DNA of 64,000 nucleotides from Blasia pusilla (lineage: Eukaryota), in NCBI GenBank assembly GCA_050084515.1, contig CM114271.1:36146001-36210000 (forward strand). The letters run 5' to 3'. The notes under the pieces are model-generated. The model made no database searches. It had not been told where the DNA came from and saw only the letters and a program-made list of their open reading frames with translations. Every line of letters starts with the position of its first letter. Position 1 is the stretch's first letter. Shown in pieces: positions 11,011-55,099 of the stretch. Position numbers and translations under genes: made by a program.

Positions 11011-13509
11011 TTGTAGATATGCCTAGGAGATTGAGACATGGCGACTCTACTATGATCCACACTATGTGTCATGGATGGAGTCGTTCCTAGATGAGGAAGA
11101 GGAGTCAGGAGAGAATACTTCCTCTTTCACTAGTGATGCTTTAGGAGGGGTCACTCGCATTGGAGCAGTTGCACCGTTTAGTCGGATGCGTTCCTAGTTT
11201 AACCCCGTGGTTGAGTTCTTTGCTGAGTTGCGGGCGAGCTACCAAGGGGTACGGACAGAGAAGTTGCAGAGCATCCACGACTTCCAGAGGCGCCCGGGTA
11301 AGAGTTTTCTTGAGGCTTACACTCGCTTGCGCCGGTTGATCAACGCCACCCAGGGGGTGATAGAGGCTCAAGCTACCCAATCATGGTACGCGATGTTGGA
11401 TAAAACGATGAGGACACGGATGCGGGAGGGGGTGCTTCTTATGAACACCTCCCCTACGTTGAGAGATATTTTTAGGACCGTCAAGAACATTGATCATAAC
11501 ATGGCAGAGAAGGGCGTAGCCACCATGGGTTCTAGGCCAGAGCAATCACGATTTCTGCACCACCAGTGCAACAACGTGGATTCCGAGATAGGTTTGTGGC
11601 ACCAAAAGCTTAGGGAGGATACCATGAGGCCGTGCCTCAGAGACGTGTGCCTTCATATGCGACTTAGCAGAAGCCGCGTGGGATTATTTGTTGGGCATGT
11701 GGTGGAGCCCATCACCACCGCAATTGCACTTGTCACGATCATCGACACGTGCCTCAGCTTGGAGAAGGAGATGGTTCTGCACGAGGAGGTAATTAGTGTG
11801 ACTATTGTCAAAGGTACGGTCATACAGGCGCCAGGTGTTTCAATTTGCATCCTGAGTTACGTGCGGACCGAGGGCCAGAGAGGGCACCAGAGCAAGTTGC
11901 GAGTCTGAGTGGGCCTAGAGGTTGTGCACCAGGTGGTTCCGTTGGGGCATGAGGAGCTGGAGTTGCCCAAGAGGTTGGTGGAGTTTCCAGTGGAGGAGGT
12001 AGAGTTCCACCACCTAGACGGGTTGAGGGAGACGCCGAGCGTGAGGCTGGGATTGCTGCTCAGATATAGCAGCTACAGCAACATATTGCTGGTATGGCAC
12101 TGGGATTATCCGATGCTGGATCGATGGCATCGATGTCTTATGGAGCAGCTAGAGATATGGAGGATGTGTGTTGGATGTGCGAGGTTGCCCAGATGGAGGC
12201 CACCATAGTTGTCACACGTGGAGAAGCCGTAGAGTTGGATCTATAGCAAGGAAAAGCCAAGAAACAGACCAGGCTTCTTTAGTCTTTCACGCTATCTAAG
12301 GCGATGAGGATCCCATGGATGGGTCCTGATCCGAGTTCTTTGAGAGTTGGTGATGTTGTTGGTGTGTAGGCATAGAGGGCGATGGGAGAGGTAAGTGCGA
12401 CAACTCCTATCGCTTATGCTCAGGAGGAGCATGTGTTGAGCGCATTGTTGGGGGCCACCATTGTGTACCGCGCTCCTTTATTTTCTGCTTTCGATGTTAT
12501 GACGTTGGGTGGTACGCCTGCCGAGGTTTTTTGGTTGGACGCTACGCTATGTGAGCGTGGAGTTGGAGTTCCTACATCAGGTTCAAAGGTGATTGCAAAG
12601 GAGGTGATGGACGTGCTCTTGGAGCCGATGTTCGGGCCGTCCACATCAGATTCATGGCAGGTTGTGGCTACTAGGATGGCGGAGATGTCCACTAGACCCA
12701 CGATAGAGTGTGCCATGGCTTCTCCTAGTGTTGTGTTATTGGGTAACTCGGGAGAGGTCTTCAAATTGGTGAGTCTAGGAGGTAGAGCTTTAAGTCCACA
12801 GCGCATCTTGTTGGATTTAGGAGCACAACCCCTGATGTTGGGGAAAGCGGCATTCAGAGGTTTGGGCCTGACCTAGGCCGATGTGGAGTTGTCATTCAAG
12901 ATACAGACATCCTTCGGTGGAGCGAGTACCACACAATATATCATTCGACATGAGGTCGTGGTGAGAATTCTCCCAGGATATCCTACAGATGAGTCGGTGG
13001 TGCAAGCCAAGGCGATAGTGACCGATGCAGAGTCCTACGACGTCTTGGTTGGTGGAACAATGTTGTATCCGATGGGGTTTTCCTTGGATTACTGGGAGGA
13101 GTCAACATCCTAAAACCAAGATGGCAGTTTGGTGATGGACAAATTTGTTCATTAATCGTTCGATTCACGGGTGGAGTGATCGAGCAACGGCCAAGAGAGA
13201 TGGCGACCTTAGCAGCATTTACTAGTGCCATCACTTGGACAAGTGATTTGATTGAGGGACATGTCCATGCAGAGGAATTACCATTTTTGACATTTCTATA
13301 GAGAGCAGTGTCATGGTAGCCGCATTATTCTGTGGAGGAGAGGTGCCGCTTTGGGGCTCGACTAAGGAGCTTCGACACTTAGCCGCTGAGCATGTGCAAA
13401 CCGTATGGAGAGAGACGTTTGCACCAGAGCGTGATGGGTGAAAGGAACCCGAGGTAGCCAAGAGTGCTATTATGACCCCTTTTGACGCCACCCCTGAGGA
13501 GAGTATTCA

Positions 13510-14420
13510 CGTATGGTGGATCTCTTTGGAGGGATCACCACTGGTTTAGCTGCTGCTCTGCTGGCTAGAGTGCATGTGCAGTAATACTTGTACATGGAAG
13601 TTGATGATGTTGCGAGGCGCGCTTTAATTCACAATGTGGCGCCATTCTACCTCCGCCATCTAGGATTACGAGAGTTCCCTACCAAGGGACATTTCATTGT
13701 TGGGGGCGCAGGACTTGGAGCGGGTAGGGACCATAGACTTGTTCATTGCAGATTGGCCGTGTCAAGGCCAATCGAGTGTTGGATGAGGTAACGGGTTAGC
13801 TAACTCTTGGTCTAAGTTGTTTTGGGAGATGATACAAATTTTGCGACACTTGAAAGAGTATTAGTTCCGTTCTCTAGCATACATTCTGGAGAATGTGCCA
13901 ATTTTGGGTGATTTGAGGTCTCGCATGGTGACGAGTGCACAACACGTGCGTGCATGGATCAACTCGACAGTGTTGTTGGATACGGCGAATATGGGTTCAC
14001 GAGCATATCGCCCGCATCTTTGGTGGACCGACTTGGTGGCACATGAGGTGTTGCGGAGGGTGTATGCGAGAGTGGAGTGCCCCTTCGATTTTTTGGTGGA
14101 TTCTATTTTCGATCCAGGTCATCGATCAAAGGCAATGAGGCACGATGATCGCCCGCTGTTGAGTGTGGTCAACACGATTGGCATGCCACGGGAAGCCTTT
14201 CCAACATTGGTGAGTTTTCCGGCTTCCTATGGGTTCAAGAAGGCCGGGCCTGCCTTGGTTTGGGATGACAAGGAACAGCGATTAATGGAGCCCAACGCCG
14301 ATGAGCACGAGCGAGCGATGGGATTTCCCACATGAGTGATGGTAGTACCGTCACAATTAGAGGCATCACGACGTCATGTCTTGGGTTAGGCGATGGACCT
14401 GAACTGCTTGACATGGATTT
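13510..14420 (+). pseudogene. DNMT3-like C5-cytosine methyltransferase domain of element 1 (degenerate)
   Basis: Motif I VDLFGGITTG (about 13516), motif IV IADWPCQG (PCQ 13757-13765), motif VI YILENVP (ENV 13889-13897), motif VIII GSRAYRPHLWW, motif IX EHERAMGF, motif X RRHVLG*AMDLN. Confidence 0.9.
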
Positions 14421-15227
14421 TTAGCTTAGGAGTAGCGGAGCAACATCGTTTTAGGTTGCGACAAATTACAAAATTGCGTTGGTGAGCCCAATGCCTATCG
14501 AGACGGTTGAGATAGTGGCTGGGGGCGAGACCCGAAAAGATTGACACACCACGGATGATCAAGTTGGGATGTGTTGCAAGTAAGTAGGAAGATGATAGCC
14601 ACAACATCAAGCGTGGTTCTAGGTACTGCACGTGGAGGAGATCAGATTTTACAATTGGCTGCAAGAGAGCAGTCGAATTCTATTGTCCAAGACGGAGTTG
14701 CACCATAGCAACCACCAACACTTGCGCCAGAGAGTCCTACGATGGAGAGTTGGGAGCCACATATGGGCCCTAAGTTGATAGGAGGAGAGCGGCGCCGGAT
14801 ACATAAGTTCCTAAGGAGTTATAGGAGTTGTTTTGCATTTAGTATGCATGATTTGGGTACACTGAAGGGTCCACGCATCCGCATTGAGATGTTGAGTGAC
14901 ACGCCGATGTTCCGAAAATCTTACACGTACAATGACATGGAAAGGGCTCTGATTCAGAGTAGTAGCCAGGACTTGGTTGGAGCAAGATAAGTGGAGATGT
15001 TGCATGGAGAGTATGCATGTGCCACTATCATGCCTGCCAAGAAGGATGTGCATGGCAATTGGATGGATAGGCGGATGTGTGGAGGTTATGGACTTATGAA
15101 TCGGTAGACGAAGTCCGATACGTATTCTATGCCCATGAGATCTCTGATGCTATTGGGCATCCAAAGGTCTTCAATTCCCTAAATCTTTGAGCCGGATACC
15201 ATCAGCTGCATATCAGATTGGAGGACA

Positions 15228-15594
15228 TGTCATGACCATACGGATTATGTCGTAGAGTATAGTGTGCTAGTAGAGGCCATACCTCATGTAGGGCCGTAGT
15301 GTCTAGGTAGAGATGCGGTTTCATATATAGGGGTCGGGGTTACTCAATTTAGGTGACTTTTCCAATAGGACCCGCTCTTAGGTTGGAGGATATAGTATGG
15401 AGTGCACTCAAAGAACAGTTAGTTCTTTGAGTTGAGTCTGTTGCGTTGGGAGTTAGCCTTGGTAGTGAGTAGAGCTCTTGGCTTAGGTGGTTCCCGCAAG
15501 CTTCGACCTGGATTCTCCCATCGTGGAGTGGGTTTGGCTCGATTGTATGTGATTCTATACATGTTTTATGACAGTACGTCTTTCACGGATTTCA
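15228..15594 (+). repeat. 5' LTR segment A1 (367 bp)
   Basis: About 96% identical by eye to 24174-24541; ends TTTCA directly before the priming site. Confidence 0.92.
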
Positions 15595-15605
15595 CTCAAA
15601 GAACT
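15595..15605 (+). promoter_or_regulatory. Tf1-type self-priming site
   Basis: CTCAAAGAACT directly after the LTR end is the exact reverse complement of AGTTCTTTGAG at 15421-15431, about 30 bp downstream of a TATA-like GATATAGTA at about 15389; no tRNA-type TGG PBS is present. Confidence 0.75.
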
Positions 15606-17088
15606 GGAGTAGATCGATGATAGCTTCGATTGTGGATCAGTAGGATCTGGTTAGGGCTCATTGTGTACTCAGTCGTGGATGTTTGTGGCTTGTGGCCTAT
15701 GTTGGAGGTGGAATCTGAAGCGTGGTTTTAGGGAAGAAGCGCCTTGATAAGAGCTTTCCAATGCACTTTAGATTGCCGGATTCCGTCGAGGGAGTTGGAA
15801 GTTATCAAGGATTGAAGATTCTGGTTCGTGTTCGGCGGTTTTCTGATGTGGAGAGCTTAGAGTGCGGAAGCTCTGTTGAAGTTCATCCAGATTGGGTGAG
15901 AGGTTCCTGTTGCTACTTGTATTGTGATCTCATGTGATGCTATTTGCTTGAGTGTGTGGAGCGTTGCGGATTTTTGCGTGCATGAATCTGGGTGGAAGCG
16001 TTGTCAGATTTGCGATTCTTGCGGTGTATGGATAGCAAGTTTTTCTGATTTTTAGCTCAGAGTAAAGAGCTCGGTTGTAGCTGATTTTTTGTGGAGAGAT
16101 AGCTATGGTGTCCAATTGAATTCAAGGTGAAACAAATTCAATTTTGGTTAAGGATTTGTGGAGTAATTGCTGATCGAAATTTTGCGGACTAGCTCAAGGT
16201 CAGCAGATCGGAGGGGTTGGTTGGTTGGTGATTCGTCTGTTGTTAGAGACGCCTATCCCGTTGGGGGCGCCTTGGTTGGGCCTCTCTCCATAACGAAGCA
16301 TGGCGAACGGGGCATGTCTCAAGCATTTCTTGGCATTTTGAGGCTTTGAGGCAACTCGTGGTAGCTCAAGGCGAGTGGGTATGAGATGCGGACTAAGGAG
16401 CAAGGAGCAAGCAAGCAAGCTTGCTTTGCTTGGGGGTGAGGCAGTTTTTGTAGGATTTGTGATTTTAGTGTTGCATAACTAGTCACCCATCTTTGGGCTA
16501 TTATGCCTGGAAGACGCTTAACTGCTAAGTTCTTAACTATGCCAGTGTACACACTGGTGTAGCTCATTTGGTGTTGTTCGGAGATGTGTTAGGCGCTTTA
16601 TGCATCTCAGGTTTTTGGTTGATGGACCTCTAGCGCATAGTACGGTGTAGCCTCTCCATGGAGGTGATATTTTCAGGAGTTGCGAGTCCGACTAGCACGT
16701 CATCGACCCGCGGCGGAGTAGCTATTGCGTTAGAGTTGTGTGGTGGGTTCTGTGGATTCAGGGGGCGCCACGTTTGGTGGATTTTGTTACCTTGATTTCC
16801 ATTTGCGATTGGAGGGTTGTCGTTGGACTTCCTATGTTTGGATCCCCTCCATTGTTGCTTCTTGCTTGCGCGCCCATTTTTAGGGTTGACGCTGATTTCC
16901 AGAGTAGTGTTACTACTGTATGCTACCAGTAGTGAGGCTGGAGTGATGACCAATAGACCGTGGGAGGCTTCTTCTGGTGATGAAAGGTTAGGTTGCCTAC
17001 ACCCATAGCTAGTAGAGCTAGAATAGTACAGCGACATCGATGTCACTTGGTTACTTCGTGGTGGTAATTTGGCGGTGGTGCGGCATCG

Positions 17089-19560
17089 GTGTTGGTCATC
17101 ACGGAGCTATCTGGTGGTCTGGTTGGGGACCGTGGTGCGGACAGTGGTGGTTTTACACGGAGTGGATTGAGGTATGGGCTACCTTTTCCATTTCCGACAG
17201 TTGATGAAGAGGAGGACGAGGGTGTTCCAAACACCAAGTCTTCTACGTTGTTATCGAGTGTTGCAGCTCCATTGATTTGGGATATGGACAGGATATATGG
17301 GGCCATGAAGGGACCACAATGATACTCGGGTGCAGTGGGCACCATTGAGCTGGAGGACTTCATGCAGGAGTTTGATATGTGGTGTGATATGCAAATGTTG
17401 CGGAACGCCACATTGTTTACACCCTTCTTGGCTTGGAAGGGGTTGTTTCAGCACTTGGAGGGACCACCCATGGATGATTACCATGAGTTTAGGAAGGACC
17501 ATGTTGCTGAGATTGAGGCATGGAGACAATATTGGTCTCCAGGCTATGTGTCTATTACCTAGGGTGGTATTGGTAGTAGTGCTCCTACTATGCCAGCCAG
17601 CTCGACGTTGAGTGGTACGAGTACGAGCCAGAGTGGGGGTACCAGTGGAGGTACCCATGGAGGTACCAATGGGGGTACTAGTGGAGATACTAGTGCCCCA
17701 CCATCGTTCAACCCGGTTGCAGAGTTCTTCAAGAGGTTGAAGAAGAACTATCAAGGAGTGAAGATAGAGAAGTTGAGGAGTCTTCAGGAATTTGAGCGAA
17801 AGACTGGTGAGAGTCTTTGTGAGGCATACACTCGTATAAGACCCTTGATTTTAGTTACCTAGGGTGTGTCTGAGGCTCACGCAGTCCAGTTTTGGTATGG
17901 GATCTTGGACAGAGAGTTGCACCGTAGGGTACGTGATGCTACTCTTATGAGTGATGATTCACCCACATTGACCCATGTGTTTGCTCTATGTGAGAAGATT
18001 GAGCTTGACATGGTGGAGGAGAGAGTGGTGACATCCGCATTTAGTAGGGATACAAGTACTACTTCTCGTGTTCAGCAGTCCACCTCACAGTCTCGTAGTA
18101 ATGATGGTGGTAGTAGTAGTGGGAGTCATGGGGGGTACACACGACCTCTGTCAGGTCCTAGAGGGACACTTGCGCAGAGACCATTGCCTTCATTTGCTGC
18201 CCCGCAGCAAGGACAGTCATGTTGGACATATGGAGGTGATCATGTTAGGAGGTTTTGTCCCCAAGAGGATGGGAGATGGACTTTGGAGGATGGTCCTCAA
18301 TCGGCTCCAACTCAGTGTGATCATTGCGGGAGACCAGGTCATCCTCGAGAGCGTTGCTTTAATCTTCATCCAGAGATGAGATCAGGCCGCAGCTGTGGTG
18401 GAGTAGCTCCGAGAGGCTGAGGTGGTAGAGGTGGTAGGGGTGGTAGAGGTGGACCAATGGTTGGAGAGCCTAACGTGGCTACTCCTTCCACTACGATAGA
18501 GTCAGTTATGGCTGCCAGGATTGAGCAGTTGGAGTAGAAGTTGGGTACTATGGCTGATATCGAGCATAGAGCAGGATCGGGAGGAGGGGCTTCCACCTCT
18601 TATGGAGGGGATGATCTCTCTTATATGGCGAGTGCAGCACACGTTGAGGCATCAGCTGCAGTTACGAGAGGAGCCACTCGAGCGTCAGAGCAACGTGGTG
18701 CTACTGTGGAGTTGGACCCACAGAGGGGTGAGGCTGGGAGGAAGGCTAGGCTTCCCTAGTCATTCTTGTTGTCCGAGGTGCTTAGGACTCCATCCATGGT
18801 TCCTACGCAGCCTATTGAGCCTACAGTGAGGACTGAGGCATCTACATTGCGTGTAGGAGACACGGATGTAGCATCCAGTGCAGTATTGCGGATGGCAACT
18901 TCAGTGTTGGGATTCCCATTGTTTTCGGCCACGGAGCTGATGGCTTTAGGAGTTGACTTAGCTCCTCTATTAGCAGCCATGTTGTGTGAACGTGGGGATG
19001 TTACTCCTACACGTGCAAAGGTGGATGAGGGTGTTGCGGTGGAGCAACCCTCTATGTCAGGTGTAGCATTGAGTACCAGTGCTACTTGGCAGGCAGCAGC
19101 GGCGAAGATGGATGCATTATCAGCCCGGCCAACCATTGATGGTGAGAGGCTTACACCTGATGTATGTATGTTGGACAACCAAAGTGGATATTCCGATTGG
19201 TAAGTCCTACAGGACAAGTGTATAGACCAGATAGAGTCTTGTTAGACTCTGGTGCCCAACCTTTGATGTTGGGAAAGGCGGCATGTATTGGTTTGGGTAT
19301 TCGGAGGTCAGAGCTTGAGCCTTGCCCATTCCAAATTCAAACATCACTTGGAGGAGCCAATGATAGGTCTCAATTCATGACACGGGAGAAGTTGTCTGTA
19401 TAGTTGAGACCAGGTCATGCGATTGATAGCTCTTGGTTGGGAGTACGTGCAGTGGTCACATCAGCCGAGTCGTATGATGTACTAGTTGGAGGAGCAATAT
19501 TGTACCCGATGGGTTTTCAGATGGACTACTTGACTGAGACAACGTCTTATAGACCTGGTT
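17089..19560 (+). pseudogene. gag: gag with two zinc knuckles, plus aspartic protease, of element 2
   Basis: Same-frame fragments 17089-19203; CWTYGGDHVRRFC and CDHCGRPGHPRERC knuckles; protease VLLDSGAQPLML after a frameshift at about 19170. Confidence 0.9.
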
Positions 19561-19970
19561 GGCAGTCCGGGAATGGACGTATGAGCCAGGTTCCTATGAG
19601 ATTTATTTATGGGGCTCGACCAAGAGGGTCTTCCCCAACGGTGTTAGCATTTGTGGCTGGTTTTAGTGGAGTAGTCACTTGGCCAGGAGACTCTTTGGAG
19701 GCTAATCTTTCTGCTATGGATTCTCCTGTGCATGAGGAGGTAGAGGAGGTCCCTAGTTTTGCAGCAGTGGCATCCTCATCATTGGATGTGCCACTTTGGT
19801 GTTCAGGCGGTGCACTACGATAAGAGGCTGATCGCCTAGTGTAGGAGGCTTGGTGTGAAGCTGTTATACCTCACTAGGAAGAGGAGGCCCCATGGCGGAC
19901 TCCTACTTCTGGTCCAGTTGGGTTATCCCCTTTGGATACTACATCCATTGTATGGCAGTATCGGCCGGAG

Positions 19971-20910
19971 GGCATTTGTGTGTTAGATCTCTTTGGTGGG
20001 ATTAGCACTGGTTTGGCTGCAGTGTTGCAGACCGGTATTCCTGTGCGGAGATACTTGTATGTGGAGGGAGATGAGACGGCCCAGAGAGTCTCATCCCGAC
20101 ATATCGGTCAATTGATGCGAAGATATCCTCAGTTGTTGCCGCCATCAGCTATTCGTGGATACCAGCGTGCTTTGCCATCACACATTGCATTGTTGGGGGC
20201 GTAGGACCTTGAGAGGGTTGGTTGTGTGGATTTGGTGATTGCTGGATGGCCATGTCAGGGTCATACATGTGCTGGTCATGGTGAGGGATTACACGACCCT
20301 AGGTCTCGATTATTTTGGAAGATGTTAAGGATGTTACGACATCTTCAGGTTCATCAGGCACATGCTCCAGTTTACATTCTAGAGAATGTTCCATTGTTGG
20401 GTGACACTCGGACCCGAATGATGGCGAGTGTTTATGAGGTGCGGTCTTGGATTGGACCAGCGGTATTGTAGGATGCAGCGCGAGTTGGCTCGCGTGCACA
20501 TCGTCCATGCTTGTGGTGGAAAAACTTGTTGCCTAGGGACATTCTAAGTCGAGCACATGATGCAGTGTAGCGGGATCCTTGCCTTACAATCGATAGTATC
20601 TTGGATACTGGGCGACTTTCTCAGGTGGTGAGGGTTATTGATCGGTCACCCATGGCAGTGGTGAACCGTGTGGGCCAGCCTAGGATGGCACTACCCACAT
20701 TTGTGAGTTTTCCCTCGTCACATGCCTACACGGAAGGTGGTCCTGGGCTTGTATGGGATTCTCATATGCAACAGTTGGTGGAGCCTAATGCTGTATGAGA
20801 GAGAGCGTGCGATGGGATTTGCTACTGGTGTGACAGCGGTTGCTTCCATTTTTGAGGTTTCACGACGTCATGTGTTGGGTCAGGCCATGGACCTGAATTG
20901 TTTGACCTGG
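19971..20910 (+). pseudogene. DNMT3-like C5-cytosine methyltransferase domain inside the pol polyprotein of element 2
   Basis: Ordered motifs: I VLDLFGGISTG (19980-), IV DLVIAGWPCQG (PCQ 20250-20258), VI YILENVP (ENV 20382-20390), VIII GSRAHRPCLWW, IX ERERAMGF, X RRHVLGQAMDLN; same frame as the upstream protease; several stops and one frameshift. Confidence 0.93.
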
Positions 20911-21261
20911 ATTTTGAGTCTTTGGATGGTCGAGCAGCGTCAACTTTGAACTATGTCTATGGGTCTTCCACCCCTTGTGATGAGCTCGATGGCTACCGGG
21001 ACGGTAGAGACATTGGCTGGGGAGGAGAATAGTATTTTGCATCCTTGGAGTAAATGGGATGTAATGGTTGGGCATGTGGAGTTGGTTGCTCATGCTGGTG
21101 GAGAAGTTATTTGCTTAGATGATGGTATAGCTAAGGGTGTACTATCTTGTGAGGGGGTTTCCGAGCAGCCAATAGTGTCGTCCTCTCCCTCTAGTGTGCC
21201 AGTGGAGGAGACTTAGGAGCCATTACTTGGGCCCAAGATTAGGGGAAGTGAGAAACGACGC

Positions 21262-22640
21262 TTGACACAATTGCGACGTGCTTATAAGAGTTGTTTTGCC
21301 TTTAGCATGAAGGAGTTGGGTGCTTTGGTTGGACCCGGTATACGGATTGATTTGGCTAGTGATTCGCCAATCTTCCGTCGTCCTTACCGATATAGTGATA
21401 TGGAGAGGGACCTGATTCAGAGTAGGACGTTGGACCTTTTGGAGGCTAGATTAGTGGAGTTGTCGTATGGAGAGTATGCATCAGCCATTGTCATGCCTGC
21501 TAACAGGGATGTGCAGGGCAACTACACGGATAGGTGGATGTGTGGAGATTACCGTCCTATCAATCGGCACACCAAGGCCGATAGGTATGCCATGCCTACA
21601 CCTGAGGAGATCTTTGATGTGGTGGGACAAGCAAAGAATTTTAGTACTTTGGATCTTCGGGCAAGATACCATCAGTTGCCAATTCGAGAGAGTGACAAGG
21701 CCAAGATAGCATTTTGGGGTGTCAACTCTCATGGCAATGATTGTTTGTACCAGTGGAAATTCTTACCCTTTGGGTTGAAGAATGCACCTGCCGAGTTTCA
21801 GAGAGTGATGGACAGGATCCTAGTAGGGTTGGATTTTGTTTGGTGTTACATTGATGATATCTTGGTGTTCAGTAACACGGTGGAGGAGCATCAGATACAT
21901 TTGCAGATTGTGTTTGAGCGGTTGAAAGCTCATGGTCTACGTTTGCATCCAGGAAAGTGTAAGTTCTTCCATGAGGATGTAGAGTACTTGGGTCATGTGA
22001 TCTATCCAGGTGGTTTGGGAGTTCAACAAGCAAAGGTGGAGGCTATTGCACTTATTCCTCATCCGGTAGATGTGAGTAGAGTTCGGGCATTCATGGGATT
22101 AGCGAACTACTATCGGAGGTATGTGAAGGGATTTAGTGCTATGGCAAAGCCTTTGAACCAATTGCTGAAATCAGATCAGGAGTGGCACTGGGGAGATGAT
22201 CAGGAGAGAGCTTTTGTGGAGCTCAAGGACCCAGTTGGTGACATGCACCTATCTTGAGGAGACCTATTAGAGGGTGCCCATTTCAATTACACACTGATTG
22301 GAGTAGGTTGGGACTTGGAGCGGTGTTGACACAACATGATGATGAGCACATGGAGTTTGTGGTGGCCTATGCAAGTCGTTCGAATAATGCAGCGGAGTCG
22401 CGCTATAGTTCATATGAGGGAGAGTGCTTGGCAGTAGTGTGGGCTATGGCACACTTTAGGTGTTACTTGTTTGGCACATAGTTTACCCTTGTTACTGATC
22501 ACCAACCGCTCAAGTGGTTGATGGAGTCTGACAAGCTTACAGGGAAGCTTGCACGGTGGGCTCTTATCTTACAGGAGTATGACTTCCAGGTGGTACATAG
22601 ACCTGGAGTTGCCAACCTTGATGCTGATGGGTTGAGTAGG
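21262..22640 (+). pseudogene. pol: Reverse transcriptase and RNase H of element 2
   Basis: MCGDYRPIN, FSTLDLRARYHQL, LPFGLKNAPAEFQRVMD, YIDD, EYLGH; RH FQLHTDWS, YEGECLAVVWA, TDHQPL, DADGLSR. Confidence 0.95.
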
Positions 22641-23039
22641 AACCCATGTACGAGCCAAGAGGATGCAATTGGGGCTAGATGGCATGGCGAGGTTGATGAG
22701 GAGATGGTGTCAGGTTGGCATGCATCTGCCTTTTTCTATTGGTTAGGGGTAGACTCTAGTATGGAGGACCACATGACATCTTACTCTAGTCAGAGGGTAG
22801 ATGGCCAGCCTTCAAATCCTAAGGTTGGAGATGGTCGTACGGATCAACGTGATATTCATGATGATGCGTTGGTGTTGGAGTTCCTACGGACCAGTAGGAT
22901 GCCAGGCATAGTGAGTGCCAAGGAGCGAGACCGTGTTCTTCAACGTTCTAAGAGGTATCGATTGGAGGGAACACATATTCTCCGTGTGTGGGAGGATGGT
23001 AGAGTACAAGTAGTGTCGTATTTGACTTAGAGAGAGCGC

Positions 23040-24052
23040 ATTGCACGACATGCCCATGAGGAGTTGGGACATTTTGGGGTAAAGCGTACGTATAGCTTAC
23101 TCCTTGGTCAGTATTGGTGGCGTGGCATGCATACTCAGGTGCAGCAGTTGGTGTCACGTTGTATGGTTTGTGACCGGGTGAGGGCATCATTCAATGCCCC
23201 TACACCATAGTTACACCCCTTGCCTATTATGGGGTTGGGTTACCGTTGGAGTGTGGACTTTGCGGGACCGTTACCGTTGACTGTACGACATCATCGATAT
23301 GTGTTGGTGATGGTGGAGCACTTCTCCAAGTGGATTGAGTTGGTGGCATTACCTGACAAGGCAAGTGAGGGAACGGCGTATGCGTTTCTTGATAGAGTGC
23401 TTAGTCATTTTGGTGCACCAGCTAAAGTGCTGACCGACTAGGGTACAGAGTTTGAGGGTTAGTTTCAGGTCTTGTGTGATAAGACGTAGATTGATCATCG
23501 GACCACGTCTCGAGATCATCAAGAGCGGATGGTTTGGCTGAGCGTGTGGTTCAGATGGTGAAGAGGGCATTACGCAAGTATGGCCTAGAGAAGGGGCATC
23601 TTGGAGACTGGGATATTCAGTTGCCATGGTTAGCCATGGGGTATAGGTTCAGTCGCCAAGCATCCTTGGCTTCCTTCTCACCTTATTTTCTGTTATACGG
23701 CCGAGATCCAGACTTGCCCACAGCAATTTTTCGGGAGTCTAGTGAGGTGGTGAACCTTGATGACCCAGAGATGTGGATGAGAGTGTGTTCTCAGCGGACA
23801 GAGCTCTTTCGGAGAGTTATGCCAAGAGCCTTTGAGAATCTTGCCATTGCTCAACACAAGGATACATTGCGGTATGCAACCATTCGGGGTGGAGGTTATC
23901 AACCATCGATTTGTAGGTTCCATGTGAGGGATTATGTCTATTTGCAGCAGAATGCACCGACAACGTTGGATGTGACGGCAGACCGCACTATTTTACGAGT
24001 GCGCGAGGTGTTAGCTTCTGGAGTTCTCATGTTGGAGGGTCGTGATGGAGTT
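23040..24052 (+). pseudogene. DDE integrase of element 2; C-terminus abuts the PPT
   Basis: HHCC zinc motif HEELGH...CMVC; core WSVDFAGPLP, LTD*GTEF, GLAERVVQMVK; SPYFLLYGR. Confidence 0.92.
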
Positions 24053-24055
24053 GTT

Positions 24056-24067
24056 AGGGGGGCGAGT
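24056..24067 (+). promoter_or_regulatory. Polypurine tract
   Basis: AGGGGGGCGAGT immediately before TGTGGTAC (start of segment B1). Confidence 0.75.
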
Positions 24068-24647
24068 TGTGGTACACTTGTGTTTGTGGATGCTCTCGAC
24101 TATGTTATGTATGTATGTGAGTATGGTATGTCAGCGATTTATGTTGTATGACGATGTGGATTTGCACGACAACTGTCATGACCATACGGATTATGTCGTA
24201 GAGTATAGTGTGCTAGTAGAGGCCATACCTCATGTAGGGCCGTAGTGTCTAGGTAGAGATGCGGTTTCATACATAGGGTTGGGGGTTACTCAGTTTAGGG
24301 TGACTTTTCCAGTAGGGCCAACTCTTAGGTTGGAGGATATAGTGTGGAGTGCACTCAAAGAACAGTTAGTTCTTTGAGTTGAGTCTGTTGCGTTGGGAGT
24401 TAGCCTTGGTAGTGAGTAGAGCTCTTGGCTTTGGTGGTTCCCGCAAGCTTCGACTTGGATTCTCCCATCGTGGAGTGGGTTTGGCTCGATTGTATGTGAT
24501 TCTATACGTGTTTTATGACAGTAGGTCTTTCACGAATTTCAGTTGTGGTACACTTGTGTTTGTGGATGCTCTCAACTATGTTATGTATATATATGAGTAT
24601 GGTATGTCAGCGATGTATGTTGTATGACGATGTGGATTTGCACGACA
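24068..24647 (+). repeat. 3' terminal repeats B1 (24068-24171), A2 (24174-24541), B2 (24544-24647)
   Basis: B1 and B2 are 104-bp copies with 4 differences; A2 matches A1. Confidence 0.92.
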
Positions 24648-26809
24648 GACAGGTAGAAGACGGCATTTAGGGGCATCGATCCTCATGGAAAGGATTCTTT
24701 GTACCACTGGCGATTCTTACCATTTGGGTTAAAGAACGCCCGGCCGAGTTGTAGAGGATCATGGATAAGACCTTGGCACGTGTGGATTTTGCTAGGTGTT
24801 ATATTGATGACATCATAGTCTTTAGCGCCACGGTTGAGGAGCATGAGCGACATCTAGAGGAGGTGTTTTGACAATTGCAGTAACATGGGATGAAGCTACA
24901 TCCAAGCAAGTGAGAGCTCTTCTACGAAAAAATTGAGTACCTTGGTCATACAATAAACCCAGGTGGCCTTGGTGTGCAGTTGACAAAGGTAGAGGCTATT
25001 TCACCCATTCCATGTCCTACAAATGTGAGTTGAGTTCGTGCATTCATGGGATTGGTGAGCTTCTATCGATGGTACGTCAAGGGTTTCAGTTTGATTGCGA
25101 AGCCGCTAACCTGCTGACTAAGATGGATCAGAAGTGGCACTTGGGGATGAGCAGGAGAGAGCATTCCAGCAGCTCGAGGACAAATTGTTATTTGCGCTCA
25201 TATTGTGGAGACCGATCAAGAGGCGTCCTTTCCAGTTGCATACAAATTGGAGCATGTTGGGGCTTGGAGCGGTGCTCACCCAACATGACGATCATGGTAG
25301 AGAGTTCGTGGTGGCTTACGCTAGGCGCTCAAACAACGCTGTAAAGGCAAAGTATAGCTTATATGAGTGTGAGTGCTTGGCTGCAATGTGGGTTATCGTA
25401 CATTTCATGTGTTATGTATTCGGCAACCCCTTTACCTTCATTATTGATCATCAGCCACTTAAGTAGTTGATGTAGTCCGATAAGCTTACAGAGAAGCTTG
25501 TGAGGTAGGCTCTTTTGTTGTAGAAGTATGACTTCCATGTGGTGCATAGACCTGGGATGCTCAACGAAGATGCAGATGGTTTGAGCCGTAACCTATGCTC
25601 GAGTCAGCGAGATGCATCTGGAGCTCGTTGGCATGGAGAGAGTGATGAGGAGTTGGTGCCATGATGGCACGCATCAGCCTATTTGGGCTTGTTGGCTATG
25701 GAGAGCCTGATTGTTGAGACTTCGATGGCGAGGTCTGATGGAGAGTCCTTAGATTAGAGGCCGGTGAGGAGACGACAGGTGGCCAAGATATTCACGACGA
25801 TGGAGTAGTCTTGGAGTACCTACGTACTGGCAACGTCATGAGGATAGTGGGTTCCAATGGGAGGGAACACATGTGTTGCGAATGTGGAAGGATGGTAGAG
25901 TATGTGTAGTGCCTCATCCTTCACAGAGAGCACGTTTGGTGCGTCATACCCGCAAGGAGTTGGATCATTTTGGAGTGAAGTGGACATATAGCTTACTCTA
26001 GATATAGTATTGGTGGCGAGGCATGCAGATTGACGTTCCACAGTTTGTTGCCAGGTGCATGGTTTGTGGTCGGGTCCAAGCATAATTCAATGCTCTGACT
26101 CCATAGTTGCATCCACTTTTGATCATGGGTTTAGGTTATAGATGGAGTTTGGATTTTGCAAGACCTTTGCCTTTGACGGAGCACCATAGTCATTATGTGT
26201 TATATGTCATAGCAACAAAACCACTGTGTTATCTTCCTCAAATATTTTGGATATAGCCATACAATCAAAATATGGTGGTGGAATACAAAATAAAAGAAAT
26301 CTTTGATTATTGCAAATAATGTAATACCAAAGTATTAAATGCATAAATGATAAGGAAACCCGATTCAATCATTCAATCTATTGAATAACCCAAGAGTTTT
26401 GATTCATAAAATATTTATTCATTTGTTTGTCTTGATGTTATTAATAGACACACAATTATGATTGATTTAATATGATACTTGTAACTCCAAACATACAAAT
26501 TATTTCTCATTTATGGTTGTCTTGTGATTTGTATCGTGATACAAATGGATCATTTGTATTCAATCTAAAACAACGATAAATTTGCAAAAAGTGTCTTTTC
26601 TTTATAAATAGCTACATATATGTTCAGCCTAAGTCCGCCATCTAACGTCTACTTCACATCTGTAGTAGGACAAGGCAAAAAAAACATGCACTGTTCACAA
26701 TAGTTGTAGGATTGGTGGTGTTATTGATAATGACAGATATATTGGAATTTGCATCTACATCCCTGATACGCCCGCCCCCCTCTTTGCCTATTGATGGATC
26801 GATCATCTA

Positions 26810-43700: not shown

Positions 43701-44954
43701 CCACTAGTATACTGCTCATGCTATGCACGAGTGAAAGGGCACATCACCTGTTACGCCTAAACCTGTTAAGTCACGTGTTAAACACTACACGTATAAGGAG
43801 GAGGCAAAAATTTATAAGGGTCAATCCGCTAGAAGGGATCCTCAAGCCCCATTACTGGATTGCATGTGCCACAAACTCGATTGCAAATATTTCCAATCAA
43901 CTCCTAGAAAATGCCTCACACGCATTGTGATACCCGTTGAAGCCGGAGTTCACCCCATTTTCTATACTCCCGAGCGGTTTCACAAGAAAAGAGAGTTTTT
44001 ACAAGTGCTTGCCCGGTTAGTTTTGTCTCCGCCCTTTGATGGGAACCTACGATGAAAGGGATTGTCCCCGAAAGCTCCACCCACAAGCGCACGCAAGAAA
44101 CTTCAGAAATCTAAGGTTCACGGCTAAGCCATATCGACAACATTCGGTATCAACACCAATTTCGGCATTCGTGGTGAATTAAAATATTTCTGGGTTTTCG
44201 ACTTTCTTGAAGTCATGCTTACAAGTAAAATAAGGACTTAAGTCCATTTAAATATGACCATATATTCAAGTTCTTTTGCAACCAATCAAGTCTCTTTTCG
44301 TTGCCGACAGCCTATATAGTATGATCTTGAAGTTAAAACGTTAAGAATAATGCTTACACTATTTATTTTGTTCGTTTCTTTTGACATCTCGGCAGAGCGA
44401 AGGCTAGCGTGTGATGTCGTTAAAGTTGTCGTACATCCGTCACAGCAATATTTGCAACATAAACTAATTTATTTCGTGAGTTCACAATAAAGGAGGTGGC
44501 GGACGACTGAATGCAGACTCTACCAAGGTTTGTGCGTTCGTCAGCCAAATCGGAGCTTAAGACCCAATTCCAAAGCATTCTCAAGTAAAGAAACAAATAA
44601 TCTTGGCCTCATGGACCCTCCACCCCAACCCCATTTCTCCCCAGCTGGCAAGAATTTGTAAAGTCCTGCTGCCGGTAGACCTACTACTGCCCGCTAAAGG
44701 AGTTGTTCGGGCTTTAGAATACATCCTACTGATATTTCTACGGCATTTGGAACTATTGTTCCACTGAAAGGTTATTGAATGGCGTTTAGAACTCTAGTTC
44801 CAAATCAACTCGGAAGTATTTGGTTTCTACCGGTCGAGATAGCCCTCAAGTTGATAGCGTAATGTGTTGGTTCAGCCCCGGAGAAGCTTCTACCAAGTGC
44901 CAAGAAAAAGCAATTGGAACTCTTGTTCCAAATGAGCTCGAAACTACATTTGTT

Positions 44955-46370
44955 GTCGACCCATAGGGATCTTAGGAGCAGGCCATTCAGAACTAAAGTT
45001 CCAACCAAGGATGGGGATTTCTCTTTACCGAACACCTTCTACGGCCGGAATTGGATCTTAGGATCCAATTGGACTCAGACTAAGTTTGGCTCCAAATGAC
45101 GTTCAGCAGTCGCGGCACTTTAGGACACAATCAAAATTAGGGTTCTGATTCTTCACTTGTTGCTCTGTTATTGAGATGTTAGGAGCAGGCCATTTGGACC
45201 CATTGTTCCAATTGAAAATTAGGGTTTAATATTACCAAACACCTTCTACGGTAGGAATTGGATCTTCGATTCCAATTGGACAACCAAAAAATATGTTCCG
45301 ATTCTACATTTGTTTTTGACCTATTGGGATGTAAGGAGCACGCAATTCGGAACTACAGTTCCAATTGAGAATAAGGATTTCCCTTTACCGGAGGCCTTCT
45401 ACGGCCAAAATTAGATCTTAGGATCCAATTGGACTCAAACTAAGTTTGGCTCCAAATTACCTTCAACGGGCGCGGCAGTCAAGGACACAATCAGAACAAA
45501 GGTTTCGATTCTCCAATGCTCGTCGACCTATTGGGATGTAAGGAGCAGATCCTTGATTGGAACTATAGTTCCAATCAAGGATGGGGAATTTCCTTTACCG
45601 GATGTCTTCTGCGGCCGGAATTGGATCTTAGAATTGAATTAGACTTTGACTAAGTTTGGCTCCAAATGACCTTCTACAGGCGCGGCAGTTTGGGACACAA
45701 TCACAACTAAGGTTCCAATTCTCCAATGTTTTCCAACCTATTGGGAGGAAAGGAGCAAGCCATTCAGAACTACAGTTCCAATCAAGGACGGGGATTTCCC
45801 TTTACCGGACGCCTTGTGCGGATGGAATTGGATCTTAGGATCCAATTGGACTCCGACTAAGTTTGGCTCCAAATGACCTTCAACGGGCGCGGCAGTTTGG
45901 GACACAATCAGAACTAAGGTTCCGATACTATACTTGTTGCCGACCTATTGGGATGCAAGGAGCTGGCCATTCAGAACTAAAGTTCCAATCGAGGATGGGG
46001 ATTTTCCCTTACCGAACGCCTTGTACGGCCAGAATTGGATCTTAGGATCGAATTGGACTCCGGCTACGTTTGGCTCCAAATGACCTTCAGCGGGCGCAAC
46101 TGTCTAGGACACAATGTCCGCTGCCCTATTGGGAGGTAAGGAGCAGGCCATTCAGAACTACAGTTCCAATCAAGGGTGGGGATTTTCTTTTATCAGACAC
46201 CTTTTGCAGCCGAAATTGGATCTTAGGATCCAATTAGACTGAGTCCACGTTTGACTCCAAATGACTTTCAGCCGGCGGGACAGTTTGGGACACAATCGGA
46301 AATAAGGTTTTGATTCTACAATTTTTCTTGAAGAAGGGATCTCAGGAGTTGGCTTGTAGTTCCAATTGAT
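44955..46370. repeat. Tandem array, about 207-bp unit, about 7 copies
   Basis: AATTGGATCTT anchor (one copy AATTAGATCTT) at 45049, 45256, 45409, 45619, 45826, 46033 and 46214. Confidence 0.92.
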
Positions 46371-48239
46371 CTAGAGGATGGCAACGTTGAGGATGCAAGC
46401 TCTACAATAAGAAACTATACACACATGTCACGTAACAAGTCCATCGCACGATCATTAGATGATAGTAAATCTGCTCATTGAATGTATAAGATTTGGAACT
46501 CAAGTTCCAATTCGGGATGATTAAAAAATATCCCCGACAATCACATGGCTTCACAATCTTTAGCTTCCACTTTTTGCAACATCTTACAGTTCTCGCAATC
46601 TTAGCTTCCATTCTCTGAAATAGGTTATAATTCGTGCTATACATGACTACAAATATCTAGTACCACAGAGTTTTCAAGTGGTGACAATGCATTTCCAATC
46701 GGAGGAGATTCTTATCCGTTGCTATATTTGTGACATTGATTGCCTCAAACCTAGGCAACATACTTCCTTAATTGCCCCCTTTTGAAAAAAGCAGTCCCGC
46801 ACACACCAAAAAATTTTGGCCTTCTTGACGAAAGATTCAGATAAATATCAGGAATCTACTAGCCTCTCAAGCATTTCAAGTGCATCTTCCCTATTCATCG
46901 TGGTCCCTTCATATTGTGGTCTACCAGGTTTCTTCGGCAATATACTTCTTGCCGAGGCCGCAGGCTTTGTAGACACCGGAGATCAAGGTGGAACTTGAGA
47001 TGTATTTTTTTTCTGTGCATTTACACATTTGATTGTTAAATTGCGTCTAGAGTTATTAGAATCCAATATTTTGAGTGCAGTGGGTAAGTCATTCCTGAGG
47101 ATAGTGTTTACTACTTTTCTAAGTTACGAGTCACCAACCGCTCAACACTCAGACGTCGACCTAATACGCGTTCCATCGTATGACTCATGCATGAAACCAC
47201 AATATGAGGTCTTCTTTACTAAATTCAAAGTGTGGAGACCCTAAATACAATGAGAACTTTAGATGAGTTAATCACTACTTTAGTTGCTCACCTGATTCGG
47301 AGAAGCCGGTAACGTTGCACTGAGCTTTTCTGTACCCTCAAGTTCCTCAATCTCCTTTTCTCCCTATGGAGTCTGCTTTTCCACTCCCTCGCTCTCCTCT
47401 TCTCCCTATGTAGTGGCAAAATGTTTGACATAATGATAACTTAACTTCTACATTAGTGCAAGAGGAGGCTTCTACATAATATGAAAGATTAATTTGGTTG
47501 CTCACCTCAGAAGGAGATTTCGATGATGGTGGAGTCTGCCTTTCCATCTTGAGGAGTCCCTCTCTCTCCTCTTCTTCTTGTATAGTGGCAAAATGGTCCA
47601 TATAATGAGAACTTAAGTTCTACATCAGTGCAAGAAGAGGCTGGGGAACTGAAATCAGAAAAAAAGGAAAAATAATTTGGTTGCTCGCCGGAGTAGGAAA
47701 GCCCAATGACGTCTAAATCTGCTTCCTCGTCTCAGCAGTCCCTCCCTTTCATTTTCTCCCTGTGAACACTCAACGTGATGAGAGATTTTATGGCTCAAGA
47801 CGATGGAGTCACGGAGAGGGATGAGGGTGAGGGATTGGCTCCCCTAACTTTTGAAAGGGTGACATTGCCTGATGTGTTGAACCCTACAATTTTGACACGG
47901 GAGACTAGTGCTCTAGCTTCTGCTGGTTCGGTAAAATATTCCACCAGAACTATCCCCACACCGCTAGGAGAAAATATCGTAAGTTCAATTTAAGAAGCTC
48001 GTTATGAAAAAAAATTTATGCTTTTGAGTGGGACAATGCTTGTTACATATGGAATTCTAATCTAAGTATCCGTTTGCGAAGAAATCATCTTCGATTGGTG
48101 GAAAATCACTTGGAGTATTGGCACTCACTCCCGAGGATGAGGAACTGATGGAGAGCAAATCCAAGCAGACGCCATCATCGAAAATACTAACTGCGATGAG
48201 AAACTTACATGATCCTCTATGATTCTCCTAATGCATGCA

Positions 48240-52939: not shown

Positions 52940-54030
52940 GCAGAAGTATGGATCTAGGCTTAGTTTGATAGCTTTGAATCTAGAAATGAATGGATACCTA
53001 AACCCATGCTTTCAGAACTAGGGTTCCCAAATCCAATGCTGGCCTCTATGCTTGCTACCTCATAGTGGGAACTATAGATCTAGTTCTCGAAAATAGAAGG
53101 AGGATCAATCGGAGCTCAGGTTCCAATTCTAGACATGACACGTGAGCTCGAATAGCTTCTTTCGAAACTCTAGTTCCCAAATGAGATCGCGGGCCTCCTT
53201 ATTAGATTCCTCACTATCAGAACTAGAGATCCACTTCTTGAAATGAGAAGGAGGATCAATCGGAACTCACGTTGCCGTTCTTCACACGAGAACTGAGTCT
53301 GAACGGGGGCGTTTGAGGCTGTAGTTCCTAAATGAGATTGTGGGCCTCCTCCGCGGCTTCCACACCATCGGAACTAGAGAAGGAGGATGAATCGGAACTT
53401 AGGTTCCGGTTCCAGACACGAGGACTGAGCATGAACGGATGCTTTCGGAAGTGTAATTCCCAAATGAGATCGCCGTCCTCCTTCGCGGCTTCCTCACCAT
53501 TGGAACCCTAGATACTGTCTCGAAATGAGAAGGAAGATCAATCGAAACTTAGGTTCCGGTTCTAGTGACGGGAGTCCCTACCTAAACGAGGCCTTTCGTA
53601 ACTATAGTTCCCAAATCAAATCGCCGGCCTCCTTGATGGATTCCTCACTATCGACAATAGAGATCCACTTATCGAGATGAGAAGGAGGATCAAGGTTCCG
53701 GTTTGAGAAACGGGAGTCCCTACCTAAACGAGGGAATTCAGAATTGTAGTTCCCAAATCAAATCACTGGCCACTTTCCTTACTACCTCACCATCGGATCT
53801 CTACTTCCAGTTCTCAAAATGAGAAGGAGCATCAATCGAAACACAAGTTCCGGTTCCAGACTAATAAATTGAGCCCGAACGGCTGCTTTCAAAATTGTAG
53901 TTCCCAAATAAAATCTCCGGCCTCCTTATCAGATGCTTCAATATCGGCACTAGAGGTCCCATTCTCAAAATGAGAAGCAAGATCAATCGGACCACAGGTT
54001 CCGGTTCCACATGCGGGAGTCCCTATCTAA
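52940..54030. repeat. Tandem array, about 151-bp unit, about 7 copies
   Basis: GAAGGAGGATCAATCGGAACT-like anchor at 53096, 53247, 53379, 53529, 53681, 53823 and 53974. Confidence 0.9.
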
Positions 54031-55099
54031 ACAAGGGCCTTTGTATATCATAGGTTCACCAACTAACTTTCTCGTCACTTCACCCACTTCCTCCGGATTT
54101 CTCTCAATGGTCGCTACGTCTGCTAAATTGTTATCCTCATTTCTTACACATGTGGAATGAATATTACTCAAGCCCTAGCAGAGTACACAAATTGTGGAAA
54201 TTCCTCTTGCTTCAAAGCACAGATATCCACTATCTAAGATTTCTTTGAATACCAGCAAAGGTTTGTGCCCGATCATTTTTTGACCACAAACATGCTCTGC
54301 TAATGTCTAGTGTGTGTATGTTGCCCAATTGACCAGGATTGCTCATATCTTCATTCAAAAATTCAAGTACATATTTCACAACTTTCTCTGATGCATTTAT
54401 CGCCGTACATGCTTGGTGCCAAATAATACTTTTTCCTCGGCTTTGCCGTTGCTTTTCATAATCCGTCTATAATTCACACCTTCCAGTTGAACCTACCACT
54501 AGCATTTGTCTACAACTCTTCTCTGCTATCCATATTCAATTGCGGCCATGACATGGTCGCCATTCATGTACTCACATGATATTGGGTTGAAGCCTATTCT
54601 GAAATTATTATGGCAATAAGGTGATTAAGGCGTCCGCATAGAGAGCCGCCATCATAGAGTGTTTCCATTTGTTCACACTTATCAGTAATTGGTTTCCAAT
54701 ACCCATCAAACAAATTAGTGTTCTCAACAAATACCTTGTCTCTAGCTAATCGTTCTTCAAGCTCAGGAGAGATATAAGGGCAGCTTGATCGTTGGATTCA
54801 AAATTAGACCGGCCTATGAGAGGTTCGGATCAGATGCTCCTACTTCATTCCTATGTTTGACATATTTCTTTCCACGGGAAACCACATGTTCAACACATTC
54901 TTGATGCACTAACAATCTTGTAGTAAAATATTTCAGTGTTCAAAACCAACGAGCTTTTGCCTTCGTATACAGATATATCCCAACCATAAATAAGTAAGAT
55001 TGACTGAACATACTTCTCAACCAGAGTTTGAACTTCATGTTTGAACAAAGCATCATTGCACATCTACCAATTCCATTGGCTTCAGGATGGTTGGCTATC

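Follow-up and report, generated by a model that had tools for sequence, protein, structure and literature searches.

Must the ends that reverse transcription gives to a retroelement also be the ends that its integrase joins to the target? LTR (long terminal repeat) retrotransposons and retroviruses are taught to integrate the linear complementary DNA (cDNA) made by reverse transcriptase (RT), circles being regarded as dead ends. A locus of the bryophyte Blasia pusilla raises this question. We analysed a stretch of 64 kb, hereafter the window (assembly GCA_050084515.1, contig CM114271.1, positions 36,146,001-36,210,000 of the forward strand), and all coordinates below are positions in it unless a related copy is named. 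At 15228-24647 the window holds a single insertion of a Ty3/Gypsy retrotransposon with the layout A1 - coding region - B1-AC-A2-G-B2, in which A and B are two different direct repeats (Table 1).

An earlier note on this DNA had described the order A...B-A-B, the TG...CA ends, a 4-bp target-site duplication (TSD) and a divergence of about 4% between the repeats. When we compared the sequence of the region 13-27 kb with itself, all of this was confirmed: A1 and A2 are identical at 353 of 368 aligned positions (95.9%) and B1 and B2 at 101 of 105 (96.2%), and no additional copy of A or B was found in the 64-kb window. The outer termini are TGTCATG on the left and CACGACA on the right, with an exact duplication of 4 bp, GACA, on each side. 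The B1/A2 junction, in the interior, is an imperfect inverted repeat in which 6 of 7 positions are paired. TGTCATG and CACGACA are the termini that the integrase joins to the target, duplicating 4 bp of it, and the same two sequences also stand next to each other, 2 bp apart, inside the element.

The insertion target is the RT gene of an older related Gypsy element. We aligned and translated the two host flanks separately. The left flank, 14286-15227, aligns to the element's own pol at 20779-21700, and the right flank, 24648-26177, aligns to 21694-23281, with 72-76% identity in both cases. The host frame (...HIRLED / DR*KTAF...) was matched to ...PIRESDKAKIAF... of the element; since frame and alignment are unbroken only when the insert and one GACA are removed, the duplication is genuine. 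The uninterrupted form of the host was recovered as a joint from 15223 to 24648, which skips 9424 bases and has 4 letters fitting both sides; it was seen in 2 contigs of the DNA run X2 and in RNA reads of two runs (3 in X22 and 1 in X23). An uninterrupted paralogue or an allele may be the source of this empty-site joint.

Where, then, does reverse transcription place its ends? The plus-strand start is placed at the start of B, since a purine tract adjoins this point in every copy, in two sequence variants, TAGGGGGGCGAG and GGAGGAAG; the second variant occurs in the copies with a longer integrase. For the minus strand, an 11-nt motif that would serve as primer-binding site (PBS) stands directly after the end of A, about 310-340 nt from the A start, in 11 of the 13 independent copies, when up to two mismatches are allowed. 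Within A, GTTCTTTGAGT is the exact complement of ACTCAAAGAAC; ahead of it stands a second copy of the PBS motif, with which it can pair as a hairpin. A motif of the TATAG/TATAA type stands at the same distance in most related copies, and the arrangement of primer arm, hairpin and TATA-like box is recognisable in most of the 13. The minus strand is probably primed by the element's own RNA, in a Tf1-like manner. Self-primed reverse transcription is known from Tf1 of Schizosaccharomyces pombe and its relatives, and our element resembles Tf1 in its putative 11-nt PBS, directly after the 5' repeat and complementary to the element's own leader, and in the TATA-like box about 30 nt upstream. It differs in that the complement of the primer is also found just upstream in A, where it forms the hairpin. 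Beside these motifs, we observed a second sequence resembling the primer arm (ATTCTYTGAGT) at about position 254 of A in L003, L013, L016, L018, L022, L024 and L045; it lies about 85 nt downstream of the first arm and about 85 nt upstream of the PBS.

Defined by the polypurine tract (PPT) and the PBS, the LTR is B+A, as previously proposed, whereas the integrated ends, bordered by the 4-bp TSD, are the A start and the B end. Reverse transcription therefore defines one pair of ends (B start and A end) and the integrase uses another. As they lie at different places, an extra step is needed between reverse transcription and integration.

To follow this layout in related copies, we searched metagenome contigs for the RT. 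We obtained 68 loci, many of which are clearly plant DNA, from a handful of samples. Loci with common flanks were merged (L003 with L004, L005 with L016, L007 with L008, L009 with L010, L022 with L023 and L048 with L049). All 13 independent 5' ends consist of unrelated flank followed directly by TGTCATGACCATA (TCTCATG in L036), and B was found neither before nor after A1 in any of the 13. On the 3' side, PPT-B-NN-A was observed at 8 independent ends. Six are complete with B2 (the window copy, L003, L009, L044, L046 and L055), and the other two are incomplete, L013 being stopped by the end of its contig and L048/L049 changed by a deletion. This deletion (L048 6940-6950, L049 13335-13345) lies between two short ATGAC repeats and fuses the B1 end to the A2 start, with loss of the CA-NN-TG junction. 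The junction is thus present in 7 copies, with the spacer GC in L003, L013, L044 and L055, AC in the window copy and L009, and AT in L046. All six complete copies share one form of the A2/B2 join, namely TTTCA or TTTTA, one G or A, and the B start, which reads TTGTGG in four copies, TTGTGA in L046 and a diverged TTATAG in L055.

Among the six copies with both ends, five carry a perfect 4-bp TSD (GACA, AAGG, TACA, ATTA and TGTG); L008 has none (ATCA vs AACC). Within a copy the A pair and the B pair are alike in their identity (95.9/96.2% in the window copy, 92.3/93.8% in L003). No locus showed an end with LTR sequence exceeding one unit and a fraction, and a search of viral contigs for the conserved A start gave 0 matches. 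We conclude that A - PBS - coding - PPT - B-NN-A-B is the normal integrated form of this family. Ordinary B+A repeats at both ends of other copies would have made the window copy an exception; instead, flank is joined directly to A at 13 of 13 5' ends, and what follows A1 is the PBS side and never B. Eight further 3' ends carry a single B.

At these 8 independent 3' ends, that is 8 of 16, PPT-B is directly followed by flank (L016, merged with L005; L024; L036; L008, merged with L007; L020; L028; L032; L038). A perfect 4-bp TSD is present in 3 of the 4 single-B copies that also hold the 5' end. One of them, L036, occupies the same insertion site as L046, which has the B-A-B form: the TSD is the same, the flanks are identical at 428 of 450 positions and the interiors at 1048 of 1179. 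At least some of the single-B copies are therefore later deletions between B1 and B2, analogous to the formation of solo LTRs, and some may be direct integration products. In the DNA run X1 we also noticed joints from B1 to B2 that skip about 477 bases. These were not counted as evidence for single-B copies, the contigs being of about 100 bases and the repeats near-identical.

We then considered the transcript, using two stranded RNA-seq runs (X22 and X23) that bear the same species label as the best-matching DNA run. Nearly all first mates of these runs lie on the - strand, which corresponds to sense transcripts in most stranded libraries. Depth was measured in bins of 337 bases with reads counted from 90% likeness, related copies being mixed. 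It is about 10-25 in the 5' part of the element, reaches 118 and 169 in the bin 23999-24335 (end of the integrase, PPT, B1 and first 162 nt of A2), and falls to 29 and 46 in the bin 24336-24672 (rest of A2 and B2) and to 14 and 18 in the flank. This profile fits a conventional transcript R-U5-PBS...PPT-U3-R that ends inside A2, mostly without the A2/B2 join, and in which U3 fits B+NN+first part of A. If transcripts end inside A2 and so lack the A2/B2 join, the join would have to be remade in each cycle. The many molecule starts at 24335 (X22) were considered as a transcript end and rejected: conservation of A between subfamilies sets in at this same place, BLAST matches beginning at A positions 158-182, and we read these starts as clipped alignments of relatives.

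How could reverse transcription and integration together give the A...B-A-B copy? We propose, with about an even chance in our judgement of being right, that the cDNA ends are joined and that the integrase opens the internal CA-NN-TG palindrome. Reverse transcription would be conventional, with the minus strand starting from the PBS after A1 and the plus strand from the purine tract before B1, and its product would be the linear cDNA B-A...B-A. The RT-made ends (A end and B start) would then be joined, as in a 2-LTR circle, or held together and sealed after strand transfer. In the former 5' LTR, the integrase would open CA-NN-TG by cutting each strand behind its CA; two ends would result, each with a recessed CA-3'OH and a 5' overhang of 2 nt, exactly the form of the usual processed substrate. 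The permuted linear molecule would integrate as A...B-A-B, and the A2/B2 join would be the scar of the end joining. On this view, most copies with a single B would have lost A2 and one B afterwards, by deletion between B1 and B2.

A cleavage of this kind has been described for retroviruses. In 2-LTR circles, the palindrome at which the two LTRs meet is cut by the integrases of foamy virus and HIV-1 (Delelis et al. 2005, 2007; PMC1180852, PMC1905944). The likeness lies in the DDE integrase, the internal CA...TG palindrome and the two processed ends. In those circles, however, the palindrome is formed by the RT-made ends themselves and nothing is permuted; in our element it is internal to the RT-defined LTR by about 109 bp, with a spacer of 2 bp instead of 4 bp.

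Several points weigh against our proposal. The circle or joined-end step is read back from integrated copies, hence from genomic sequence, and self-priming is argued from complementarity. The metagenome contigs of the relatives are short-read assemblies, and the RNA depth, with its coarse bins of 337 bases that mix related copies, is no more than suggestive. The single B at 8 of 16 3' ends could be a direct product, arising if both sites were cut or if the linear cDNA was cut subterminally. Moreover, a 2-LTR circle contains two identical CA-NN-TG sites, and the mirror form A-B-A-PBS...PPT-B was seen at 0 of 13 5' ends. For the model to hold, either the site of the 5' LTR must be favoured by some unexplained bias or the mirror form must disappear quickly by A/A recombination. 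If lost via its A repeats of 340-370 bp, the mirror form would be hidden among the eight single-B copies.

A stronger version of the joined-end model would supply such a bias. Here replication through joined ends would be obligatory, the DDE integrase would act like a restriction enzyme and the copy would always be permuted, the choice of the 5' site being imposed by the cargo of the element, possibly its own methyltransferase marking the CpG of CACGACA. We put this version forward tentatively, as a possibility that we rather doubt. If it were true, such marking would suggest why methyltransferases recur in split-repeat retroelements (DIRS, PAT, SymbioDIRS-Dnmt3 and Gypsy-DNMT3). Apart from this, we tried several schemes of reverse transcription in which no ends are joined and synthesis is primed from the B1/A2 junction, from the hairpin arm of A2 or from a folded-back RNA 3' end; each of them gives A...B or B-A...B-A, and they were rejected.

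The missing mirror forms are what a DIRS-like restoration of the ends would account for, since it gives the A...B-A-B orientation only. In such a process nothing is ligated: an RNA running from inside A1 to inside B2 would be reverse transcribed with the B1-NN-A2 junction as a splint, and the product, a linear or circular DNA with CACGACA-NN-TGTCATG at its ends or junction, would then be processed by the integrase. The layout is exactly that of the split direct repeats of PAT and Ngaro, for which the available text of PMC7192593 gives this logic as the accepted model, and the RNA depth remaining over the rest of A2 and B2, above that of the flank, speaks in the same direction. But RNA into B2 is required, and depth drops about fourfold before B2. 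Furthermore, this process leaves unexplained that the purine tract, in its two variants, lies exactly at the B start and the self-complementary PBS exactly at the A end, and that the A2/B2 join equals these two points abutted. For the join to be copied, every succession of template switches that we could devise has the minus strand primed at the B2 end or past it, where no conserved primer site exists, the flank being different in each copy. We therefore regard this explanation, the main rival of joined ends, as unlikely. Ligation would be equally unnecessary if the nascent minus strand switched from B1 to B2 on a read-through RNA, giving a cDNA with doubled LTRs (B-A-B-A at each end) from which the integrase, by cutting subterminal half-sites, would free A...B-A-B from linear DNA; subterminal cutting of ordinary cDNA would at the same time give the single-B form seen at half of the 3' ends. 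This demands a specific copy-choice event and a choice of half-sites in each productive cycle, the read-through RNA is disfavoured by the depth, and ends longer than one LTR unit and a fraction were seen in none of the loci, all of which makes it very unlikely in our opinion.

Could the window copy be a one-off rearrangement or a misassembly of an ordinary B-A...B-A Gypsy copy? Indeed, the whole stretch is spanned by no single contig of the DNA runs X1 or X2. The same layout, termini and 4-bp TSDs nevertheless occur in independent, diverged copies from other assemblies, so that this explanation is refuted for the family; at the locus itself the exact empty site was recovered, and the junction of flank with A start cannot come from a collapsed ordinary element. 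Taken together, an artefact of this type is extremely improbable. The split direct repeats would also be those of a tyrosine-recombinase element (DIRS, PAT or Ngaro) that merely resembles Gypsy. This is hardly conceivable: rve is present, no tyrosine-recombinase domain was found in 14 + 15 open reading frames (ORFs), the TSD is of 4 bp, the ends are TG...CA, and distant full-length relatives carry rve, an H2C2 zinc-binding domain and a PHD finger (precomputed Pfam).

The coding content agrees with the last point. On the + strand the pol order is RT-RNase H-rve integrase (PF00078, PF17917/PF17919, PF00665), and Phage_integrase gave 0 matches among the 29 ORFs scanned, of which 15 were added from the long 5' region (8, on both strands) and from two relatives (7). 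On this point the earlier interpretation, which is supported in part, holds: the integrase is of the DDE type, and a tyrosine recombinase was not found in these ORFs. The pol order, the short TSD and the TG...CA termini are those of Ty3/Gypsy, from which the element departs in lacking two equal complete LTRs: the 5' end has A only, and the PPT stands before B1 and not before the terminal A2-B2 unit. From the DIRS order it has the split direct repeats A1...B1A2B2, and it differs from that order by the absence of a tyrosine recombinase and by its 4-bp TSDs, since DIRS-type integration is not known to make a TSD of the integrase type. It shares with Gypsy-DNMT3 elements both a C5 cytosine DNA methyltransferase (DNMT) inside a Gypsy pol and the layout A-coding-B-A-B. 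The element is a degenerate Ty3/Gypsy copy with a captured DNMT, and it belongs to a bryophyte family. PF00145 was found in the window copy and in the relative L013, and homologues of the DNMT-containing ORF occur in Marchantia polymorpha and Sphagnum fallax, with PF00145 and in some cases also RT and RNase H. RT homologues were named from Calypogeia fissa.

Two observations concern the integrase region. In the relatives L032 (5600-5770) and L038 (4380-4608) the integrase has a longer C-terminus with a Cys4-His-Cys3, PHD-finger-like stretch up to the B start; it is missing from the window copy (24053-24055), and the distant full-length relatives carry PF00628. RNA reads part from the window sequence at 24053-24055 (63-105 reads per loose end), and since they diverge where this stretch is missing, the expressed copies contain it. 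RNA reads also join 22812 to 23820 (16 in X22 and 27 in X23), skipping 1007 bases with 9 other letters between. This joint marks either a diverged relative or a transcribed derivative with a deletion, in both cases without the N-terminal half of the integrase.

The layout had been thought foreign to Gypsy elements with a DDE integrase. This claim is outdated: de Mendoza et al. (2018, Nat Commun, PMC5890265, Fig. 4c) already describe, for KnitGypsy-Dnmt3 of Klebsormidium nitens, repeats built like those of a DIRS element together with the domain composition of Gypsy. On this basis the two elements share the Gypsy domains, the C5 DNMT inside pol and the A-coding-B-A-B repeats. The host there is a charophyte alga and here a bryophyte; no Klebsormidium name appears among the 60 homologues listed. 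The available text of PMC5890265 gives no termini, TSD, positions of PBS and PPT or mechanism for KnitGypsy-Dnmt3. Beyond it, the literature on split-repeat retroelements and Gypsy-DNMT3, in its accessible portions and supplements aside, gave no account of the termini, TSD, spacer, PBS and PPT positions or mechanism of any Gypsy element so arranged; streptophyte Gypsy-DNMT3 is named in passing in a preprint of 2026 (10.64898/2026.05.21.726589). The layout is therefore already known from Klebsormidium with its mechanism unexplained, and the window element is a further case that extends it to a bryophyte family.

Among elements of the DIRS order, PAT-like elements, Ngaro and TOC1 share with our element the order A1...B1A2B2 and an internal B1A2 junction that equals the joined outer ends. 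They use a tyrosine recombinase, whereas rve integrase, TG...CA ends and 4-bp TSDs are found here. Integration of PAT-like elements, Ngaro and TOC1 is not known to make a TSD. A methyltransferase is encoded by PAT and DIRS as well (PMC7192593), and TOC1 is a non-autonomous DIRS element (PMC9940879).

A retroelement with a DDE integrase whose integrated ends are other than its cDNA ends would surprise most specialists, even if this is not the first sighting. The family is old and still transcribed in bryophytes, and its RT-made ends and integrase-used ends are demonstrably distinct. With its termini now exactly placed, and with the 2-bp spacer, the TSDs and three forms recorded as observed or absent, two questions become testable: is a circular or joined-end molecule the substrate in vivo, and what is the source of the directionality? 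Annotation is concerned as well: programs that find LTRs by expecting two equal ones will set the limits of such elements wrongly or overlook them.

Table 1. Features of the element and of its host sequence, as positions in the 64-kb window.
Feature	Position	Strand	Basis or remark
TSD GACA, left copy	15224..15227		flank reading; empty-site joint with 4 shared letters
Repeat A1 (TGTCATG...TTTCA), 5' terminal repeat of the integrated element	15228..15594	+	95.9% identical to A2
TATA-like box ATATAGTA, about 32 nt before the primer-like arm	15390..15397	+	sequence reading; function inferred
Hairpin in A, CACTCAAAGAAC - loop - GTTCTTTGAGT, 3' arm complementary to the PBS	15405..15432	+	conserved; recognisable in most related copies
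Putative self-priming minus-strand PBS ACTCAAAGAAC, directly after A1	15594..15604	+	11-nt complement of 15422-15432
Gag-like ORF fragment, two Cys-His zinc-knuckle-like motifs	17863..18420	+	by eye; without Pfam match; homologues named CCHC-type
Protease-like region, LLDSGAQ motif, frame interrupted by a stop	19161..19823	+	by eye; without Pfam match
C5 cytosine DNMT domain, broken frame	19878..20471	+	PF00145 E=2.6e-10 (20205-20468); FGG, PCQ and ENV motifs by eye
Reverse transcriptase	21217..22257	+	PF00078 E=4.8e-30
RNase H	22242..23030	+	PF17919 and PF17917
DDE integrase, rve core 23211-23438, then C-terminal part, broken frame	23211..24064	+	PF00665 E=3.9e-9
PPT AGGGGGGCGAG, abuts B1	24056..24066	+	sequence reading; purine-rich at the same place in two family variants
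Repeat B1, GT-rich, TTGTGG...CACGACA	24067..24171	+	96.2% identical to B2
Internal junction CACGACA-AC-TGTCATG, both integrated termini adjacent, 2-bp spacer	24165..24180		sequence reading
Repeat A2	24174..24541	+	self-comparison of sequence
A2/B2 join TTTCA-G-TTGTGG, two RT-defined LTR ends abutted	24537..24548	+	sequence reading
Repeat B2, 3' terminal repeat, ends CACGACA	24543..24647	+	self-comparison of sequence
TSD GACA, right copy	24648..24651		flank reading; empty-site joint
Older degenerate related Gypsy element, left half (RT region)	13865..15227	+	72-76% nucleotide identity to the element's own pol 20779-21700
Older host Gypsy element, right half (RT, RNase H and integrase region)	24648..26201	+	72-73% identity to 21694-23281

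Concerning the surroundings of the insertion, termini of the older host element were sought within the window and none was found. Between 14900 and 25000 there are many positions at which nearly all DNA contigs and RNA reads have a base other than that of the window copy, as would fit an old and mutated copy from a large family that is still transcribed. A strand asymmetry extends over both nested elements: in 12001-24000 the GC skew is +0.24 and the AT skew about -0.1, the + strand being G+T-rich, and the skew is near 0 elsewhere. The window also contains three tandem arrays, at 1841-2216 (8-bp unit, about 370 bp in total), 44939-46408 (unit of about 207 bp, 1.5 kb in total) and 52995-54062 (unit of about 145-150 bp, 1 kb in total).

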